This document shows, piece by piece, positions 25,925 through 38,987 of a stretch of 64,000 nucleotides of DNA (position 1 is its first letter; every line of letters starts with the position of its first letter). Position numbers and translations under genes: made by a program. The notes beneath the pieces are model-generated. The model saw only the letters and a program-made list of their open reading frames with translations, was not told where the DNA came from and ran no database searches. The DNA comes from Candidatus Saccharimonadota bacterium (GTDB lineage Bacteria; Patescibacteriota; Saccharimonadia; Saccharimonadales; JACDBH01): NCBI GenBank assembly GCA_013694995.1, contig JACDBH010000004.1, positions 256,995 through 320,994 on the forward strand, written 5' to 3'.

Positions 25925-26338
25925 TTGCCTACAATTAACCAACTGGTTCGTAAGCCGCGCACGAGCTCAAAAGCTAAAAGCAAAAGCCCAGCACTGCATC
26001 GCGTCACCAACAATCTTCATACCAAATCATACGAGAAACCATCGCCTTTTAAGCGTGGTGTCTGTATTAAAGTAACAACCAAGACACCAAAAAAGCCGAA
26101 CTCGGCTCTACGTAAAGTTGCTCGTGTTCGTTTGAATAACGGCTACGAAGTCTGGGCTTACATTGGCGGCGAAGGCCATAACCTACAAGAGCATGCAGTT
26201 GTTCTGATTCGTGGTGGCCGGGTACCTGACCTTCCTGGCGTCCGTTACCACATTGTTCGCGGCAGCCTTGACCTCCAGGGCGTTGCCAATCGCAAACGCA
26301 GCCGTTCCAAGTACGGCGCCAAGAAGGGTAGTAAGTAA
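25925..26338 (+). CDS. rpsL: 30S ribosomal protein S12 (uS12)
   Basis: (M)[11 protein letters not shown]... with a TTG start at 25925 preceded by TTAGGAGAA. The tracked 25853 start adds a non-homologous extension. Confidence 0.93.
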
Positions 26339-26339
26339 T

Positions 26340-26816
26340 ATGCCACGCAAGGTAACCAAAGCACTGGTACGCGAAGCGGCACCAGACCGCGTCTATAACA
26401 ACCAGCAAGTCACCCGCCTTATTAACCGCATTATGCGAGACGGCAAGAAGCAGACAGCTGAGAGACTTGTCTATAGCGGCATGGAAAAAGCCGCTAAAAA
26501 GGTTAAAAATGAAAATCCACTGGAAGTTTTTGAAAAAGCCATGGGCAATATCCGTCCTCACATGGAAACCCGTTCCCGACGCGTCGGCGGTGCTAATTAC
26601 CAAATTCCTTTTGAGGTAAAGGGCCAGCGCCAGCATCATTTAACTACTATGTGGTTTGTATCTGCCGCTCGTTCCCGTAAAGGCATGAGCATGGAAGATC
26701 GAATCGCAGTCGAGCTTGTCGATGCTTTCAACAATACTGGCACGGCAGTCAAAAAACGCGAAGATGTTCATAAAATGGCTGATAGTAACCGAGCCTTTGC
26801 TCACTTTGCGAGATAG
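26340..26816 (+). CDS. rpsG: 30S ribosomal protein S7 (uS7)
   Basis: MPRKVTKALVREAAPDRVYNN... begins 1 nt after the rpsL stop. The tracked 26211 start overlaps rpsL. Confidence 0.95.
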   Translation: MPRKVTKALVREAAPDRVYNNQQVTRLINRIMRDGKKQTAERLVYSGMEKAAKKVKNENPLEVFEKAMGNIRPHMETRSRRVGGANYQIPFEVKGQRQHHLTTMWFVSAARSRKGMSMEDRIAVELVDAFNNTGTAVKKREDVHKMADSNRAFAHFAR

Positions 26817-26818
26817 AT

Positions 26819-27103
26819 TTGAACGAAGCTTTTAAATTAGTTCAAAATAGGACTGATGCTCAAGAATTAGTAGATATTTTCGCACCAGAGAATTGCAAAA
26901 ACTGCGAAGGGCTTGAAGCTCAGGCAGAAGTAGTTGGAAACGAAAAAGTGCAGTGGCATCTTATCAACGACATAACAGATGTTTTACATTCTAATTCTTC
27001 CTCACAGAAATTAAGATATTTAGTTAGGAGTATTCGGGATGCGAAAACCTCATGTCCAGGTAAAACGCCTAATGGAATGTGCCGATTAGACGTAGGTAAA
27101 TAA
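26819..27103 (+). CDS. hypothetical small CxxC protein (94 aa) inserted between rpsG and fusA
   Basis: TTG start 2 nt after the rpsG stop. The ORF fills an otherwise unexplained 326-nt rpsG-fusA gap. Four Cys residues (C26, C29, C79, C88). Resembles ORF 31713..32003. Confidence 0.5.
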   Translation: MNEAFKLVQNRTDAQELVDIFAPENCKNCEGLEAQAEVVGNEKVQWHLINDITDVLHSNSSSQKLRYLVRSIRDAKTSCPGKTPNGMCRLDVGK

Positions 27104-27142
27104 CCTTAAGATTATTAAAATATTGATTGGACGACAGATAAT

Positions 27143-29230
27143 ATGGTAGCTAAGAAAACAGCAATGAAAGACATACGCAACATGGGCATTATTGCTCATA
27201 TTGATGCCGGTAAAACTACTACTACTGAAGGCATACTGTACCGTACTGGCCTAAAGCACAAAATCGGTGCGGTACACGACGGTGAGACCACTACTGACTG
27301 GATGGCTCAAGAACGAGAGCGAGGTATCACAATCGTATCGGCCGCTGTCACTTGTTACTGGAAAGACCATCAGATTAATATCATCGATACTCCAGGTCAT
27401 ATTGACTTCACAGTCGAGGTAGAACGTAGTTTGCGAGTGCTTGACGGTGCCTGTGTAGTGTTTGATGGCAAAATGGGTGTAGAATCACAGTCTGAGACTG
27501 TATGGCGTCAGGCTACAAAATACGGCGTACCTCGTATATGCTTTATCAATAAAATAAACCAGACAGGTGGGGATTTCTATAAATCGCTAGACTCCATTCA
27601 TAACCGTCTTACTAAGCGTGCCTTTCCTGTTCACCTGCCCATAGGTTTTGAGCAAGGGATTAATGGTGTAGTCGATTTGGTATCGATGAAATCGTACACC
27701 TATAAAGAATTTACTGATAAAGAGCTTGTTGTGGGAGAAATTCCAGAAGATATGATGGATCAAGTCAAGAAATATCGCAGCTTACTCATCGAAAATGCTG
27801 TCGCAGAAGACGAAGCCGTCTTAGAAAAATACTTTGAAGTGGGCGAAGAAGGCTTAACTGAAGCCGATATAAAGCAAGCTATCCGTACTGCAGTGTTAGG
27901 CGGACAGTTTTATGTAGTAACCGGTGGTGACGGTCGGGGTGTGATAGTCGAAAAACTACTAGATATGTTTGTCGATTATCTGCCTAACCCTCTTGACCGT
28001 GGCTCTACTTGGGGAACGCACCCTAAAACTGGTGACGAAATAGAGCGTAAGCCAGATGAATCAGAGCATCTTGCCGGACTTGCTTTCAAAATTACTACCG
28101 ATCCATTCGTAGGCAAATTAGCATATTTCCGCGTTTATTCCGGCAAGCTAAGTGCAGGCTCATACATCCTTAATAGCTCAACCGGTGAAAAAGAACGTAT
28201 CGGCCGTATTGTCCGTATGCAGGCTGATAAGCGGGAAGATGTTACCGAGGTAACAGCAGGTGACATTGCGGCTATCGTTGGGCTCAAAGGAACGACCACA
28301 GGACATACTTTAAGCGATCTGAATAATCCAATAGTACTCGAAAGCATTACTTTCCCTGAGCCTCCAGTTAGTATCGCTATTGAGCCCAAGACCAAAGGCG
28401 ACCAGGAAAAAATGGGTATCGCCATGCAGCGCCTGGCTGAAGAAGATCCGACTTTCCGTATAAAAGTTGACGATGAAACAAATCAAACAATTATTTCGGG
28501 TATGGGCGAGCTTCACCTAGAAATTATCGTTGATAGAATGAAACGTGAATTTGACGTAGAAGCCAATATCGGTGCACCACAAGTTGCATATAAGGAAACC
28601 ATACGTAAGGACGGCGTGGAAGCCCAGGGTAAATTCATTCGTCAGTCTGGTGGCCGTGGACAATATGGCGACGCTTGGTTGCGTATCAGCCAGAACGAAC
28701 AAGGCAAGGGTTTTGAGTTTATCAATTCTATCAAGGGCGGAGTAATACCGGGTGAATACATTAAACCAGTCGAAGAAGGCGTAAAAGAAGCCATGACTAC
28801 TGGTGTTGTTGCAGGCTATCCTGTAGTTGACGTTAAGGTAGAGCTATATGATGGTAGCTATCATGATGTTGACTCCTCGGAGATGGCCTTTAAGATTGCT
28901 GGCTCGATGGGATTCCAAGAAGCCATGAAAAAGGCTAGCCCTGTGCTCCTAGAACCTATTATGAAAGTCGTTGTTGTGACTCCTGAGGAATTCATGGGTG
29001 ACGTTATTGGCGATCTCAATAGCAAGCGTGCTCGCATCGAATCCATGGAAGATTTAAGCTCAGGTATAAAGGAAATAACTGCTTTCGTACCATTGGGTGA
29101 AATGTTTGGCTACACCACTGCCTTACGTAGCTCCACTAAAGGTCGGGCAAGTTCAAGTATGGAACTCGATCACTACGCCGACGTACCTAATCATGTGGCT
29201 GATGCCATAGCATCAAAAAGAGCTAAATAA
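27143..29230 (+). CDS. fusA: elongation factor G
   Basis: G-domain motifs AHIDAGKTT, DTPGH, NKID(INKIN) and EF-G domains II-V. 695 aa. Confidence 0.96.
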   Translation: MVAKKTAMKDIRNMGIIAHIDAGKTTTTEGILYRTGLKHKIGAVHDGETTTDWMAQERERGITIVSAAVTCYWKDHQINIIDTPGHIDFTVEVERSLRVLDGACVVFDGKMGVESQSETVWRQATKYGVPRICFINKINQTGGDFYKSLDSIHNRLTKRAFPVHLPIGFEQGINGVVDLVSMKSYTYKEFTDKELVVGEIPEDMMDQVKKYRSLLIENAVAEDEAVLEKYFEVGEEGLTEADIKQAIRTAVLGGQFYVVTGGDGRGVIVEKLLDMFVDYLPNPLDRGSTWGTHPKTGDEIERKPDESEHLAGLAFKITTDPFVGKLAYFRVYSGKLSAGSYILNSSTGEKERIGRIVRMQADKREDVTEVTAGDIAAIVGLKGTTTGHTLSDLNNPIVLESITFPEPPVSIAIEPKTKGDQEKMGIAMQRLAEEDPTFRIKVDDETNQTIISGMGELHLEIIVDRMKREFDVEANIGAPQVAYKETIRKDGVEAQGKFIRQSGGRGQYGDAWLRISQNEQGKGFEFINSIKGGVIPGEYIKPVEEGVKEAMTTGVVAGYPVVDVKVELYDGSYHDVDSSEMAFKIAGSMGFQEAMKKASPVLLEPIMKVVVVTPEEFMGDVIGDLNSKRARIESMEDLSSGIKEITAFVPLGEMFGYTTALRSSTKGRASSSMELDHYADVPNHVADAIASKRAK

Positions 29231-29521
29231 ATGGCATATGAACCATTAGACAACGAACCGATTTCACAAGTTGGGATGCGTAATAATCTCACAACTTCAC
29301 GTATCGGCAAGGTACTTTTAGAAAAAAGCCGAAATTCCATAGGTGCGTTAGCAGAAGTAGGGAAAGCAATTGGAAGACTTGGGATGACTGGAGTCTCTTG
29401 GGGGGCTAGTAGTTTGATTAAAAAATACGAAGATAGCTGTAAGCAATTACATCTAGATGATCCAAGAACACTGGACCAACATGATACAGATCCGCCCGAT
29501 AACCCTTTACAAACTTCTTAA
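29231..29521 (+). CDS. hypothetical small protein (96 aa) inserted between fusA and tuf
   Basis: The ATG immediately follows the fusA TAA. Gly/Ala-rich amphipathic core (IGALAEVGKAIGRLGMTGVSWGASS). No recognised family. Confidence 0.5.
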   Translation: MAYEPLDNEPISQVGMRNNLTTSRIGKVLLEKSRNSIGALAEVGKAIGRLGMTGVSWGASSLIKKYEDSCKQLHLDDPRTLDQHDTDPPDNPLQTS

Positions 29522-29630
29522 TTTGGGCTATTATTCATCTGTAACTCGCGTGAGGGCTATTGCTGTAGTGTCAGTAATTATGGATCGCGAACATATATAA
29601 ACCAAGCCTAATTAAGGAGAAAAACACTTC

Positions 29631-30812
29631 ATGGCAAACTTCAACCGAGACAAACCACACGTAAACGTCGGTACCATGGGTCATGTCGACCACGGTAAAA
29701 CTACCCTAACAGCAGCTATTACGAGCGTGCTTGCTAAAAAATTGCCTAGTGACATCAATAAATCTGTTGCTTATGACCAAATCGACAACGCTCCGGAAGA
29801 AAAAGCCCGAGGTATAACTATCGCTACCTCCCACCAAGAATATGAGAGCGAAAAGCGCCACTATGCACACGTTGATATGCCGGGTCACGCTGACTACGTC
29901 AAGAACATGATTACCGGCGCTGCACAAATCGATGGAGCTATATTAGTTGTGTCTGCTGCTGATGGTCCTATGCCTCAGACTCGCGAACATGTTTTGCTTG
30001 CTAAGCAAGTGGGTGTTCCAAGCATCTTAGTTTTCATGAATAAAATGGACTTAGCGGACGCAGACCTTGTAGAGCTTGTAGAAATGGACATCCGCGAATT
30101 GCTTGCCAAATATGATTTTGATGAAAATGCACCGATTATCAAAGGCTCAGCAACCAAGGCGCTGGAAGGCGATGCTGCTAACGAAGACTCGATCATGGAG
30201 CTTATTAAAGCCATGGACGATTTTGTTCCTGAGCCAAAGCGCGAACTTGACAAGCCTTTCTTGATGCCTATTGAGGATGTCTTCTCAATTAAAGGTCGTG
30301 GCACAGTTGCTACTGGCCGTGTGGAACAAGGTGTAGTCAAGGTCAACGAAGAAGTCGAAATTGTTGGTATCCGTGCTACTACCAAATCTGTTGTAACTGG
30401 TGTTGAAATGTTCAAGAAAAATCTTGATCAGGGTCAGGCTGGTGACAACGTCGGTATACTGCTTAGAGGTATAGAACGTGATGACATAGAGCGCGGCCAG
30501 GTTTTGGCTAAACCCGGTACAATTACTCCACACACAGAATTTGATGCTGAAGTTTATATCCTAACTAAAGAAGAAGGTGGACGACACACACCATTCTTCA
30601 AAGGATATAAACCACAATTTTACTTCCGCACAACGGACGTAACAGGTGAAGTTGAACTCCCAGCAGATAAAGAAATGGTCATGCCTGGTGATACAATCAC
30701 CTTTAAGGTCACATTGCTAGCTCCTATTGCTATGGAGCAGGGACTTCGCTTTGCAATCCGCGAAGGTGGCCGTACGGTTGGTGCTGGAGTGGTAACGAAA
30801 ATCAATAAATAG
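29631..30812 (+). CDS. tuf: elongation factor Tu
   Basis: [21 protein letters not shown] motifs. 393 aa. AAGGAGA Shine-Dalgarno upstream. Confidence 0.97.
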
Positions 30813-30836
30813 AAAATTTAGTGTACTATTAAGCAT

Positions 30837-30870
30837 AGAGCCTCGCAAAATACCGGGGCTCTATTTTTAT
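30837..30870 (+). terminator. intrinsic terminator after tuf
   Basis: AGAGCCTCG-caaaatac-CGGGGCTCT (9 bp including one G.U pair) followed by ATTTTTATT. Confidence 0.75.
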
Positions 30871-30898
30871 TGATTAACCTTTCTTAAAACTATAAAAA

Positions 30899-31060
30899 CT
30901 AAGCAGCCTTAAAACGGTCTTTAAGATCTAGAAACTTAGCATACCCTTCCAGTGCTAGTGCTCCTGCAACCGCCGCGACAGCCACTGGTATATTGATTAA
31001 TTCACCCATGAGCTTACCAGACTCTTCGTTATGAAGCCTTGGTCCTATTAGTTCAGACAT
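30899..31060 (-). CDS. candidate small hydrophobic protein (53 aa), below the ORF-track length cutoff
   Basis: My translation: MSELIGPRLHNEESGKLMGELINIPVAVAAVAGALALEGYAKFLDLKDRFKAA*. The Ala/Gly-rich hydrophobic core resembles ORF 32000..32206. Weak Shine-Dalgarno. Confidence 0.35.
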   Translation of the reverse strand: MSELIGPRLHNEESGKLMGELINIPVAVAAVAGALALEGYAKFLDLKDRFKAA

Positions 31061-31250
31061 TTTTATCTTTCTCGCTAGTATAGCGTTTATGCTTTTAACT
31101 TACTCTTTAATGTTGTTGTTGTAAATATCTTTATTTATAACTAGATTTGTTGTAAAATAACAGAGTAAATTAACGGTGATGATTAAAAGTCATTGCACAA
31201 GCTCTATATAGCAGTGCAAGGATGTTACATCACAAATAAGGACAAATATT

Positions 31251-31589
31251 ATGGCAGAAGCGAAAAAAACTGAAGCGCCTGCACCAAAGCAACGTATTCG
31301 TATCCGCTTGAAGGCGTATGATCATAAAGTAATTGACCAGTCCGCAAAACAGATTGTTGATACGGCATTGCGAACGGGAGCAACCATTGCCGGCCCGATT
31401 CCGCTGCCGACACGCAAAAGTACATTTACAGTAGTCAAAAGCCCCCACGTCTTCAAGAAAGGCCGAGAACAGTTCGAAATGCGTGTCCATAAACGTCTGA
31501 TTGATGTATTTGAGCCTACCCCTAAGACAATTGATTCTTTAATGAATCTTTCTCTTCCTGCTGGCTGCGACGCTGAAATTAAGATGTAA
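31251..31589 (+). CDS. rpsJ: 30S ribosomal protein S10 (uS10)
   Basis: [26 protein letters not shown]...GPIPLPT...HKRLIDV. 112 aa. Confidence 0.95.
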
Positions 31590-31712
31590 CTTTAGGCAAA
31601 CCGTCTTAAGAGTTCTTAACTTTTAAGGCAAAGTTAAGTGATTATCTGACCAAAACTAATATTGTACTAAATATTACTGTAAATACTTATGTTTTAGAGT
31701 AAGTTGTGCCTT

Positions 31713-32003
31713 ATGACTATGCTTCAGTCTTTGGATTCAATTGAGCAACATTATGATAATTTGATTGAGATTATTTCAAAAAAGTGCAGAACTTGCCCTT
31801 ACGCTGTTGCGCTAGCGGAAATACTTATAGTCAATGTTGAACAAGGTGAGATGTCTATCGACCAGGCAGACAGGGAATTTGCTCTGCAACTTGGTAGTAA
31901 ATGTATGGAAGATGGGCTGGTTGAATTATATGATTCGTATTATTGTCCCGCAAAAGATGCGTCTGTACAGAGCCCTGAGTATCTAGCTGTAACTGGTACT
32001 TAA
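31713..32003 (+). CDS. hypothetical small CxxC protein inserted between rpsJ and rplC
   Basis: The ORF is open from TTG 31704, with ATG codons at 31713 and 31719. CRTC motif plus two distal Cys residues. Residues NLIEIISKKCRTCPYAVALAEILIVNVEQ align with ELVDIFAPENCKNCEGLEAQAEVVGNEKVQ of ORF 26819. Confidence 0.5.
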   Translation: MTMLQSLDSIEQHYDNLIEIISKKCRTCPYAVALAEILIVNVEQGEMSIDQADREFALQLGSKCMEDGLVELYDSYYCPAKDASVQSPEYLAVTGT

Positions 32004-32206
32004 GTCTTCTTTTTCTTGGCCCATCTTCTAAGTAGTTCAAAACCGCCAGCTTGTGCGGCATTAAATGCAGCGTAGGATGAAATCAGTACGTTCGGACCAG
32101 GTATTGCTAGAGCAATTGCTCCTGCTCCTAAGGCTATGACTGTATTGAAATCGCGCCCGAAACGGGCTGCTCGCTCTCCAAACTTAGACTCGATATTGCT
32201 AGCCAT
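32000..32206 (-). CDS. hypothetical small Gly/Ala-rich hydrophobic protein (68 aa) with a KKKK tail
   Basis: MASNIESKFGERAARFGRDFNTVIALGAGAIALAIPGPNVLISSYAAFNAAQAGGFELLRRWAKKKKT. Its stop overlaps the stop of the convergent ORF 31713..32003 (shared TTAA). Confidence 0.45.
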   Translation of the reverse strand: MASNIESKFGERAARFGRDFNTVIALGAGAIALAIPGPNVLISSYAAFNAAQAGGFELLRRWAKKKKT

Positions 32207-32271
32207 TGCATATGAATATATAAAAAAGCATAACAACAAGCTGTAAAGTATATTACGACTGTGCTTTAATA

Positions 32272-32529
32272 ATGATTATGGTAAAAAATAAAGAACCGGA
32301 CAGCGTTTATTTCTTAAAATTGGTGCTTTATCTTATTATTGGTGCTCAGTGGCTTCGTATAACTAAGAGTGGTTTGCAAATCCCAATCCCTATAGGTCTA
32401 ATCATCGGCATACTATTTGCTAGAACCGATCATTTTCAAATTGACCGCAAAGTTGAGTATGCAATTCTACTTGTTGCTATGTTTGTTGGTTTTTGGCTTC
32501 CACTAGGTCTCGAAATCGTAATTCGTTAA
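32272..32529 (+). CDS. hypothetical small membrane protein (85 aa, ~3 hydrophobic helices)
   Basis: ORF with hydrophobic segments LKLVLYLIIGAQWL, IPIGLIIGILFA and AILLVAMFVGFWLPLGL. Confidence 0.5.
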   Translation: MIMVKNKEPDSVYFLKLVLYLIIGAQWLRITKSGLQIPIPIGLIIGILFARTDHFQIDRKVEYAILLVAMFVGFWLPLGLEIVIR

Positions 32530-32549
32530 TTTGTAGAATTTACATCGTA

Positions 32550-32579
32550 TTGACTAGTGTTAATGTTTTGTGCTAATCT
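32550..32579 (+). promoter_or_regulatory. candidate promoter for rplC and the downstream operon (TTGACT-18-TGcTAATCT)
   Basis: TTGACT at 32550-32555. Extended -10 TGCTAATCT at 32571-32579. Confidence 0.45.
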
Positions 32580-32613
32580 GTTATGGTATATCAACAATTT
32601 GGACACTTTAGAA

Positions 32614-32667
32614 CTTGGTGAATAAGCAGGTCTACAGAGGTAGAAACCACTTGCCACCAAGCTTTTT
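32614..32667 (+). promoter_or_regulatory. structured leader or attenuator-like hairpin upstream of rplC
   Basis: CTTGGTG (32614-20) pairs with CACCAAG (32655-61). Inner helices are gca/tgc, ggt/acc and ctac/gtag, with an AGAG tetraloop. Followed by CTTTTTAA ~33 nt before the rplC ATG. Confidence 0.4.
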
Positions 32668-32699
32668 AACGCATTGTGCCAAGTAATATTAAGGAAACT

Positions 32700-33314
32700 A
32701 TGAAAGCACTCATTACCAGAAAGGTTGGCATGACAAGTCTCGTCGCTGAAGACGGTATTGTTACCGCTGTTACCTTGCTTTCAGCTAGTCCTAACGTTAT
32801 TACCCAAGTAAAGACAACTGACACAGATGGCTATCAAGCTGTTCAACTTGGTTTCGAGACTGCTAAACATCCTGCTAAGCCACAGGTTGGCCACACAGCT
32901 AAGGCTAAAGTGAATCCAGCTAAAATCGTCCGCGAAATTCGCGTAGATGAAATTAGCGAAGATATGAGCGTCGGCACTGAACTTAAAGCCGACGTTTTTA
33001 GTGTCGGTGATGCAGTTAGCGTTACTGGTATTAGCAAAGGTAAAGGTTTTGCAGGCACTATTAAGCGTCACAACTTCAAGCTTGGCCGTAAAACCCATGG
33101 TGGCCGCTCTTACCGTCGTCCCGGATCAATTGGTTCCATGTACCCGCAGCGTATCTTTAAGGGTAAACGTATGGCCGGACAGATGGGCGTTGATCAAGTC
33201 ACTGTAAAGAATCTTAAAGTAGCTCTAGTCGATGTAGATAACAACCTTATAGCGGTAACCGGTGCAGTCCCCGGCCCACGTAAAAGCATCGTCGTACTAA
33301 AGGGAGCCAAATAA
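32700..33314 (+). CDS. rplC: 50S ribosomal protein L3 (uL3)
   Basis: MKALITRKVGMTSL... with an AAGGAA Shine-Dalgarno. The tracked GTG start at 32676 is less likely. Confidence 0.95.
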   Translation: MKALITRKVGMTSLVAEDGIVTAVTLLSASPNVITQVKTTDTDGYQAVQLGFETAKHPAKPQVGHTAKAKVNPAKIVREIRVDEISEDMSVGTELKADVFSVGDAVSVTGISKGKGFAGTIKRHNFKLGRKTHGGRSYRRPGSIGSMYPQRIFKGKRMAGQMGVDQVTVKNLKVALVDVDNNLIAVTGAVPGPRKSIVVLKGAK

Positions 33315-38718: not shown

Positions 38719-38987
38719 TGGCAAAAAAATCAAGTATAGCGCGCGATTTAAAGCGCCATAAAATGCATGCAAAATATGCTGCAAAACGAGCTGAGCTTAA
38801 GGAGCTTGGTGATTTGGAAGGTCTTGCTAAATTGCCACGCAATTCTAGCCCAACACGTCTTAAGAACCGCTGCCTTGAAACGGGACGCGCACGTAGTTAT
38901 ATGCGCCAATTTGGCTTAAGTCGGATGTCTTTCCGAGAACACGCTGTTAAGGGCGAAATACCCGGCGTTACGAAAGCGAGTTGGTAA
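38718..38987 (+). CDS. rpsN: 30S ribosomal protein S14 (uS14), long Cys-less (C-) form
   Basis: 89 aa ending [11 protein letters not shown]. No CxxC zinc-ribbon motifs. Confidence 0.93.

Follow-up and report, generated by a model that had tools for sequence, protein, structure and literature searches.

The window analysed here is a 64,000-nucleotide (nt) stretch from a metagenome-assembled genome of Candidatus Saccharibacteria (locus tags H0V99_). Within it we studied two small open reading frames (ORFs) that lie downstream of genes for 30S ribosomal proteins: ORF1, between rpsG and fusA, and ORF2, after rpsJ. The genes follow one another as rpoB-rpoC, rpsL, rpsG, ORF1, fusA, ORF3 and tuf, followed by a hairpin and a minus-strand ORF of 53 amino acids (aa); then come rpsJ, ORF2, a minus-strand 68-aa gene, a gene for an 85-aa membrane protein, rplC-rplD and the remaining S10 operon (Table 1). 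For comparison, 80 related Saccharimonadales loci were gathered using L3 (rplC) as query, and are labelled here within the range L002 to L088. The labels P0002 and P0007 to P0013 denote proteins in protein databases, of which P0002 and P0008 to P0013 belong to the ORF2 family. Another assembly, GCA_020063845.1, was identical to that of the window across 20 kb and hence yields no information on polymorphism.

Table 1. Position of ORF1, ORF2 and other features in the window
Feature	Position	Strand	Evidence or remark
rpsL (S12), opening the str operon	25925..26338	+	Pfam Ribosom_S12_S23; TTG start preceded by AGGAG
rpsG (S7)	26340..26816	+	Pfam Ribosomal_S7; stop TAG at 26814-26816
ORF1, 94 aa	26819..27103	+	rpsG-fusA slot; ORF-length, codon and comparative tests
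fusA (EF-G)	27143..29230	+	Pfam GTP_EFTU, EFG_III, EFG_IV, EFG_C
ORF3, 96 aa	29231..29521	+	EF-G/EF-Tu slot; codon usage
tuf (EF-Tu)	29631..30812	+	Pfam GTP_EFTU, D2, D3
Intrinsic-terminator-like hairpin	30835..30864	+	11-bp stem and T-run; end of the str transcription unit
rpsJ (S10)	31251..31589	+	Pfam Ribosomal_S10
ORF2, 96 aa	31713..32003	+	annotated as hypothetical protein MBA2279358.1; small Saccharimonadales family
Convergent 68-aa gene	32000..32206	-	4-nt stop-codon overlap with ORF2
85-aa membrane protein	32272..32529	+	67 tblastn matches; no Pfam match
rplC (L3)	32700..33314	+	Pfam Ribosomal_L3; conventional S10-operon order restarts here
S14	38865..38984		C-minus, zinc-independent form; retains one Cys
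L36	43448..43561		C-minus, zinc-independent form
L33	53690..53845		C-minus, zinc-independent form

Both ORFs were found where the original prediction, made from the sequence of the window, had placed them, and ORF1 indeed starts 2 nt past the rpsG stop, with a TTG codon. It ends 39 nt short of fusA and covers 87% of the rpsG-fusA gap, which is longer than ORFs found in shuffled gap sequence (p=0.003). Its codon-usage score (0.124) exceeds that of 97% of shadow ORFs and of 98.7% of composition-matched random ORFs, and the other five frames of the region score only -0.4 to -1.1. The TTG stands at the exact position of an ATG in L080, L031 and L055, as seen when gcgagataagtATG from L080 (ATG) is set against gcgagatagatTTG from the window (TTG). 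Such non-ATG starts are in use within the str operon, since rpsL, whose sequence ttaggagaatttacaTTGcctacaatt shows the conserved N-terminus PTINQL, begins with TTG at 25925. ORF1 sits in the str transcription unit, and no terminator was found before tuf. Its predicted tie to a translation operon was confirmed, the ORF being inside the str operon and placed for translational coupling to rpsG. Weighing these sequence features and the comparative results below, we consider with good confidence that ORF1 is translated.

The sole detectable homologue of ORF1 is the ORF that occupies the same rpsG-fusA interval (hereafter the slot) in L020. The two were matched by pairwise BLASTP with E=5e-5, by a search of a slot-only database with E=0.002, and with z=7.4, and they have the motif CPGxTxxGxC in common. 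When the L020 ORF was used as a query against 7829 ORFs, ORF1 was its best non-self match. Beyond this pair ORF1 is an orphan: a word-indexed search of 5.8 billion proteins gave no match, metagenome scans with ORF1 (JGI) and with the L020 slot ORF returned nothing except L020's own contig, and the sole non-self match of an exhaustive phmmer search of 1.84 billion representative proteins, P0007 (E=1e-5), was dismissed. P0007 is a protein of 1899 aa with five near-identical repeats, each containing GECKNCQ; a single chance match was scored five times over. Two other candidates were rejected. The link between ORF1 and P0010/L031b, with a Smith-Waterman z of 5.4, vanishes under composition-adjusted BLASTP (E=26), and L024a is unreliable as a relative because a hidden Markov model (HMM) of L020 and L024a places ORF1 only 8th (E=4.6).

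The slot was compared across related species. Between S7 and EF-G these have anything from 18 to 2000 nt, and in 21 of the 24 species with a gap of 180-700 nt the plus strand of the slot carries an ORF longer than in shuffles (p<0.05). These slot ORFs usually cover 80-99% of the gap, start (usually with ATG) 2-12 nt past the S7 stop and end 0-39 nt ahead of the EF-G start. Most of them cannot be aligned to one another. In the sister L004, S7 is 91% and EF-G 89% identical to the proteins of the window, and the identity of the slot DNA is at random level. Their Cys counts, on the other hand, are bimodal, with either 0-1 or 4-6 residues. A layout with two neighbouring Cys in the N-terminal part and, 25 residues or more further on, a second pair (a 2+2 layout) was present in nine of 26 slot ORFs, ORF1 included, where shuffling predicts 1.0±0.95 and none of 2000 shuffles reached nine. 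The same layout was seen in 0 of 27 ORFs at the EF-G/EF-Tu junction, 3 of 28 at EF-Tu/S10 (not significant) and 2 of 48 first ORFs after S10. The 2+2 enrichment is therefore specific to the rpsG-fusA junction. ORFs of this Cys type are found in most clades of a tree built on S7 and EF-G, sister L004 among them, and about a third to half of the species carry a slot protein with 4-5 Cys in the 2+2 layout, others having unrelated Cys-less families and a few an empty slot. Among the Cys-type slot proteins only the ORF1-L020 pair is significant, the mean z being 0.32 for Cys-type pairs versus 0.08 with controls. A joint MAFFT alignment and HMM of all Cys-type slot ORFs was dropped because the alignment was anchored by the cysteines essentially alone.

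These results bear directly on the possibility that ORF1 is a functionless translated spacer, bridging rpsG to fusA and thereby avoiding polarity or mRNA decay, or else a chance ORF with randomly placed Cys. A 2+2 layout far above shuffle expectation at this junction only, and Cys counts that fall into two groups instead of scattering about the value expected at random, are not what such a spacer predicts, and the coding-like codon usage and the weak but position-matched homology to L020 likewise speak against it. A bridge would account for the way in which slot ORFs always abut both neighbours, and a spacer would also fit with ORF1 being an orphan in every search, with a slot that cannot be aligned to that of L004 despite the identity of the flanking proteins, with a TTG start, an apparent lack of annotation by the Prokaryotic Genome Annotation Pipeline (PGAP), and a G+C content (GC 0.38; 0.29 at third codon positions, GC3) below that of the flanking genes. 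However, a bridge is not required, since several species have gaps of 18-64 nt and no ORF. We consider the spacer explanation decidedly improbable.

Several other observations were made on the slot and on the junctions that surround it. Two further, unrelated Cys-less slot families were recognised, one of 111-115 aa with the motif GPY..IG.D..F..G.IRIEPP (L041:2639-2974, L049:3624-3968 and L081:3076-3423) and one of 145-177 aa starting with MGLFSIRG (L060:3556-4032, L063:1504-1941 and L072:4198-4731); neither has a match in Pfam. In L024 the gap between rpsG and fusA is 2 kb long and contains a row of three Cys-rich ORFs (100, 108 and 139 aa; L024:1645-2961), of which the first two are weakly alike (E=0.24), and the triplet may be a tandem expansion of a Cys-type slot gene. 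Two proteins of 157-167 aa at the EF-Tu/S10 junction (L021:7157-7660 and L022:913-1386) have a CxxCxxCC motif and four further Cys; we presume that they could belong to the YkgJ-type Zn/Fe-chelating family. Junction lengths were 18-2000 nt for S7|EF-G, 109-3877 nt for EF-G|EF-Tu, -1-2514 nt for EF-Tu|S10 and 198-9256 nt for S10|L3. Because these four junctions vary hugely and carry many different inserted genes, the str-S10 region behaves as a hotspot of insertion within this order. Searches of the literature turned up no account of these genes or of such slots.

ORF2 starts with ATG 123 nt past the rpsJ stop, which it follows without a detectable terminator. Its 96-aa product has an isoelectric point (pI) of 4.2 and Cys at positions 25, 28, 64 and 78. 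An alternative TTG start at 31704 would yield 99 aa and add a fifth Cys at position 2. The predicted Cys positions were right for ORF1 (26/29/79/88), but those given for ORF2 (28/31/67/81) fit this 99-aa form and not the ATG-initiated one. The codon-usage score of ORF2 (0.219) lies above that of every null ORF. A word-indexed search of 5.8 billion proteins returned ORF2 alone. In L002, the closest species, an 80-aa ORF is 31% identical to it over 65 residues (pairwise E=7e-6). A jackhmmer search on junction ORFs brought in L004 and L074 and converged at four members, L031 being added later, and a profile search of a large protein database found the same relatives plus P0012 and P0013. The ORF2 family thus comprises seven sequences from about six Saccharimonadales species, with C25, C28 and C64 invariant and the fourth Cys downstream at a variable distance. 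The ratio of non-synonymous to synonymous substitution rates (dN/dS), measured on relatives since ORF2 itself has no close orthologue, was 0.03 for L002/L083, 0.14 for L085/L088 and 0.20 for L031/L085. Family members are found near rpsJ on the same strand, in the S10-L3 or the EF-Tu-S10 interval, typically after a gene for a NUDIX hydrolase or beside a glycosidase-like gene and upstream of the genes for the 85-aa membrane protein and L3. On the strength of these comparisons we conclude that ORF2 is a real gene and that its family is under purifying selection. The expectation that homologues exist in related genomes thus held for ORF2, with its family of seven, and for ORF1 extends only to the L020 slot ORF. 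The claim that both ORFs are embedded in ribosomal-protein operons needs a similar distinction, as it is correct for ORF1 in the str operon, whereas ORF2 is not inside an intact operon but followed by the minus-strand gene and a further small gene before rplC.

An AlphaFold2 (AF2) model of ORF2, built on the alignment of seven sequences, had an overall predicted local distance difference test (pLDDT) of 64 and predicted helices at residues 7-20, 29-43 and 49-61 (pLDDT 70-86), with the CxxC just ahead of the second. Foldseek searches with this model gave nothing significant in PDB or BFVD (BFVD E>=0.9).

The architectures of ORF1 and ORF2 are similar. Both products are acidic and of similar length, and they have the same layout, with a CxxC at 26/29 and 25/28, respectively, and a distal pair spaced Cx8C in ORF1 and Cx13C in ORF2. 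When sequences with four Cys are shuffled internally, the layout CxxC, at least 25 residues and Cx2-14C is obtained in 0.7% of cases for ORF1 and 0.6% for ORF2. This layout, which had been proposed to mark a small metal-binding module, is hence non-random, is kept in the ORF2 relatives and recurs in the rpsG-fusA slot. The original prediction went further and held that the two ORFs are paralogues sharing a colinear block. This could not be upheld: BLASTP produced a local alignment of 23 residues with E=0.09, Smith-Waterman alignment, set against 2000 shuffles, was no better than chance (z=1.7, p=0.074), and global alignment gave p=0.51. Comparison of the relatives of ORF1 and ORF2 with hhalign gave E=0.2 and 0.16 with a probability below 1%, and in reciprocal searches with default filters neither family HMM reached the other ORF at E<1.

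With filters off, the HMM of the seven ORF2-family sequences scored ORF1 at 8.9 bits, the second-best non-member among 7829 ORFs. The match aligns aipekCrpC to FAPENCKNC around the CxxC (i-Evalue 1.4e-4 for a single comparison), and its score was equalled by 0.1% of full shuffles and by 0.2-0.9% of shuffles in which the Cys were fixed. Among ten Cys-less controls, however, one (the slot protein of L080) reached p=0.005 in the same test, which shows that the shuffle null is too lenient and makes the 8.9-bit match a hint, not evidence. Most of the other Cys-type slot proteins gave no signal with the ORF2 profile. ORF1 and ORF2 might still be true paralogues, members of one very fast-evolving Cys4 superfamily spread behind genes of 30S proteins. 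Equal length, acidity and 2+2 layout would be explained in this way, as would the rank of ORF1 (second of about 7820 non-member ORFs) with the ORF2-family HMM, the colinear alignment of both Cys pairs over 59 columns when A2 was compared with A4 in hhalign, and the presence in L003 of a further 2+2 Cys ORF placed 2 nt behind the S10 stop. Against this stand the pairwise and profile comparisons given above, the L080 control and the silence of most Cys-type slot proteins, and we regard paralogy as a serious possibility but an unlikely one. At the level of sequence comparison, what ORF1 and ORF2 have is a shared architecture, with homology unproven. The ORF of L003 (L003:3564-3902) encodes an acidic protein of 112 aa with Cx5C and Cx4C pairs and mirrors behind S10 the arrangement of ORF1; as a candidate relative it was rejected, having no detectable homology to ORF1 or ORF2.

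We then considered what the four cysteines could do. A CxxC at the N-terminus of a helix, a helical middle and a C-terminal pair of variable spacing, four thiols in all, are what would be expected of a structural metal staple, and we infer from this layout that a single structural metal ion, in all likelihood Zn(II), is held by the four Cys. ORF1 and ORF2 did not match the known classes with which they were compared. For a zinc ribbon or C4 zinc finger a Pfam match is missing and the second pair is not CxxC; for a thioredoxin (Trx) fold the predicted ORF2 model is all-helical and no Trx or glutaredoxin (Grx) profile matches; and for a zinc-binding anti-sigma (ZAS) factor the position four residues ahead of the first Cys holds A22 (ORF1) or I21 (ORF2), not His, with no match to the Pfam family zf-HC2. 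More generally, ORF1, ORF2 and 15 relatives had no match at E<0.01 in Pfam or NCBIfam, and ORF1, ORF2, their relatives and the other slot families had none in Pfam, NCBIfam, PADLOC or the sequences of PDB. Sequences of the ORF1/ORF2 type have no visible signal peptide or transmembrane segment.

The Cys could alternatively be redox-active, forming a thiol-disulfide switch, or be ligands of an Fe-S cluster rather than of structural Zn. CxxC is also a classic redox motif, four Cys are able to ligate a [2Fe-2S] or [4Fe-4S] cluster, and several family members have a fifth Cys or more. Yet the model of ORF2 is predicted to be all-helical, with no thioredoxin-like beta-alpha-beta fold, Pfam and NCBIfam gave no match to families of the Trx, Grx, WhiB or Fe-S kind, and a second pair spaced from Cx4C to Cx13C is more typical of structural sites. 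We therefore judge redox or Fe-S chemistry to be improbable, and retain a structural metal as the preferred assignment. A phage or defence origin was also considered and rejected, as it found no support in phage genomes, PADLOC, PHROGs or Foldseek searches of BFVD; tblastn against 50,697 phage records gave no match and the matches to PHROGs were weak (E=0.009-0.03).

The original prediction had suggested that the two proteins are lineage-specific ribosome-associated factors. In its more elaborate form, this explanation would make them Zn-binding partners of the ribosome or of translation factors (S7, EF-G, S10) that offset the loss of Cys-containing ribosomal proteins. ORF1 indeed lies in one transcription unit with rpsG and fusA and is placed for tight coupling to them, the slot persists throughout Saccharimonadales, and S14, L36 and L33 are all C-minus here, as had been predicted, with the nuance that S14 retains one Cys. 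Nevertheless, our results argue against a role of this kind. The pI lies between 4.2 and 6.1 in 18 of the 19 Cys-type proteins tabulated (6.1 for ORF1, 4.2 for ORF2), unlike rRNA-binding proteins. Ribosomal proteins are basic, broadly conserved and matched by their families, whereas ORF1 and ORF2 are acidic, an orphan and a member of a seven-sequence family, respectively, and have no profile or PDB match. Sequence turnover is extreme: slot proteins have diverged past recognition between sisters with about 90% identical S7 and EF-G, and the slot gene has been swapped for unrelated families or lost. In addition, the relatives of ORF2 are found beside NUDIX or glycosidase-like genes and not directly after S10, and neither ORF resembles known ribosome-associated families. 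Acidity, extreme divergence, and replacement by Cys-less families or absence elsewhere thus speak against a core ribosomal role, and a partnership with the ribosome appears to us very improbable.

ORF3 begins with the first base after the fusA stop and occupies most of the EF-G/EF-Tu gap; it has one Cys, and its codon-usage score of 0.172 exceeds that of 98.5% of shadow ORFs. It is an orphan, with no relative among the 80 related loci, and looks like a second slot gene, without the Cys layout. The minus-strand 68-aa gene has a 68% identical homologue in L002 and breaks up the S10 operon, and the 4-nt overlap of its stop with that of ORF2 lies inside a CTTAAG palindrome. The 85-aa protein is predicted to have two helices, and in most of the 80 Saccharimonadales loci its gene directly precedes rplC; in the clustering of gap ORFs it forms a cluster of 47, every one of them in the S10-L3 interval. 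An explanation by an RNA element was rejected, as Rfam gave no match at E<=1 over positions 26700-32700.

Taken together, we hold with moderate confidence that ORF1 and ORF2 encode genuine, lineage-restricted and fast-diverging cytoplasmic Cys4 mini-proteins, probably stapled by Zn and accessory rather than ribosomal. The common architecture would consist of an N-terminal helix, a CxxC knuckle opening the next helix, a helical middle and a C-terminal Cys pair, and one metal ion, most likely Zn(II), would tie the C-terminal tail to the CxxC knuckle, steadying a mini helical bundle. ORF1 would be translated from its TTG through termination-reinitiation coupling with rpsG, the ribosomes being handed on toward fusA. 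Both proteins could then act as accessory protein-binding modules that profit from the strong expression of the two transcription units, str and S10. The data would also fit young genes in a permissive, highly expressed location.

A number of points weigh against this explanation. The metal is assigned from the layout of the Cys only. In the AF2 model of ORF2, residues 62-96, which include C64 and C78, have a pLDDT of about 41, and the single-sequence AF2 model of ORF1 (pLDDT 40) was unusable and was discarded. Cys content alone proves nothing, as random ORFs in DNA of 40% GC are expected to contain about 3% Cys; what counts is the layout of the Cys, the bimodality of their number, the specificity for one junction and the recurrence. 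As for recurrence, Cys-type slot ORFs may share ancestry, in which case the nine of 26 with the 2+2 layout are not independent events, but shared ancestry would also mean that the Cys had been conserved. The TTG start of ORF1 is preceded by a weak Shine-Dalgarno-like sequence, GAGA, and the ORF has no close orthologue, so that selection on it is not measurable. Finally, ORF1 has no protein accession at NCBI and, by the numbering of locus tags (02865, 02875, 02885...), no locus tag, whereas its neighbours have both. From the spacing of the tags and the absent accession, ORF1 was probably missed by PGAP annotation.

A broader proposal is that the rpsG-fusA slot and the looser slot behind rpsJ hold one ancient acidic Cys4 family, with ORF1 and ORF2 as distant paralogues, evolving so fast that nothing but its four ligands, its charge and the position of its gene has been kept. 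We think this joint claim unlikely. If it were true, it would suggest a role in an arms race or in coevolution with a partner, for example the modulation of EF-G or of the ribosome, or an interaction between episymbiont and host. Under our preferred explanation of lineage-restricted accessory mini-proteins, and provided that the proteins are made, the locus would contain two undescribed Cys4 mini-protein families in an uncultured, host-dependent bacterial phylum, and the junctions of the str and S10 operons, biology's most conserved, would be fixed, translationally coupled slots with changing content. This bears on gene gain and renewal in the reduced genomes of the Candidate Phyla Radiation, on the small-protein capacity overlooked by annotation pipelines, and on highly expressed core operons as launch pads for young or fast-evolving genes. 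The present evidence reveals no new ribosomal component.

Several known systems resemble parts of this arrangement. Small C4 zinc-finger and zinc-ribbon mini-proteins exist, such as the zinc-finger micro-proteins of haloarchaea and the zinc-ribbon proteins of bacteria. ORF1 and ORF2 are like them in being under about 100 aa, with four Cys as two pairs and a presumed metal staple in a domain too small to do without it. In classical ribbons, however, two CxxC knuckles sit on beta-hairpins at a distance of 10-25 residues, whereas in the ORF1/ORF2 type 35-50 residues separate the two pairs, the second of which is Cx4-13C, and the segment between is predicted to be helical. The Cys-containing (C+), zinc-binding forms of the ribosomal proteins S14, L33, L36, L31 and L32 are also small, have four Cys and are specified by genes within or close to ribosomal operons, but they are basic and conserved across bacteria, while the ORF1/ORF2 type is acidic, hypervariable and clade-restricted and showed no similarity to them in the Pfam scan or in a search of PDB sequences. 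ZAS anti-sigma factors (HxxxCxxC) and WhiB-like Fe-S proteins are likewise small, helical, Cys-ligated regulators of about 80-120 aa from Gram-positive-type lineages; the Cys spacing of ORF1 and ORF2 is unlike the C-xn-CxxC-x5-C of WhiB, and there is no Pfam match. With regard to position, passenger genes in ribosomal operons are familiar, as with the ybxF/L7Ae-like gene beside rpsL in Bacillus or secY-adk-map in the spc operon, and these too are accessory genes that share the transcript and the translational coupling of a core translation operon. Known passengers are conserved and identifiable, in contrast to the slot genes described here, whose position is conserved and whose content changes between species. 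Neither mini-proteins of the Cys4 kind nor passengers of ribosomal operons are new, and it is the hypervariable, translationally coupled rpsG-fusA slot with its recurrent Cys4 signature that is a real oddity of Saccharimonadales.

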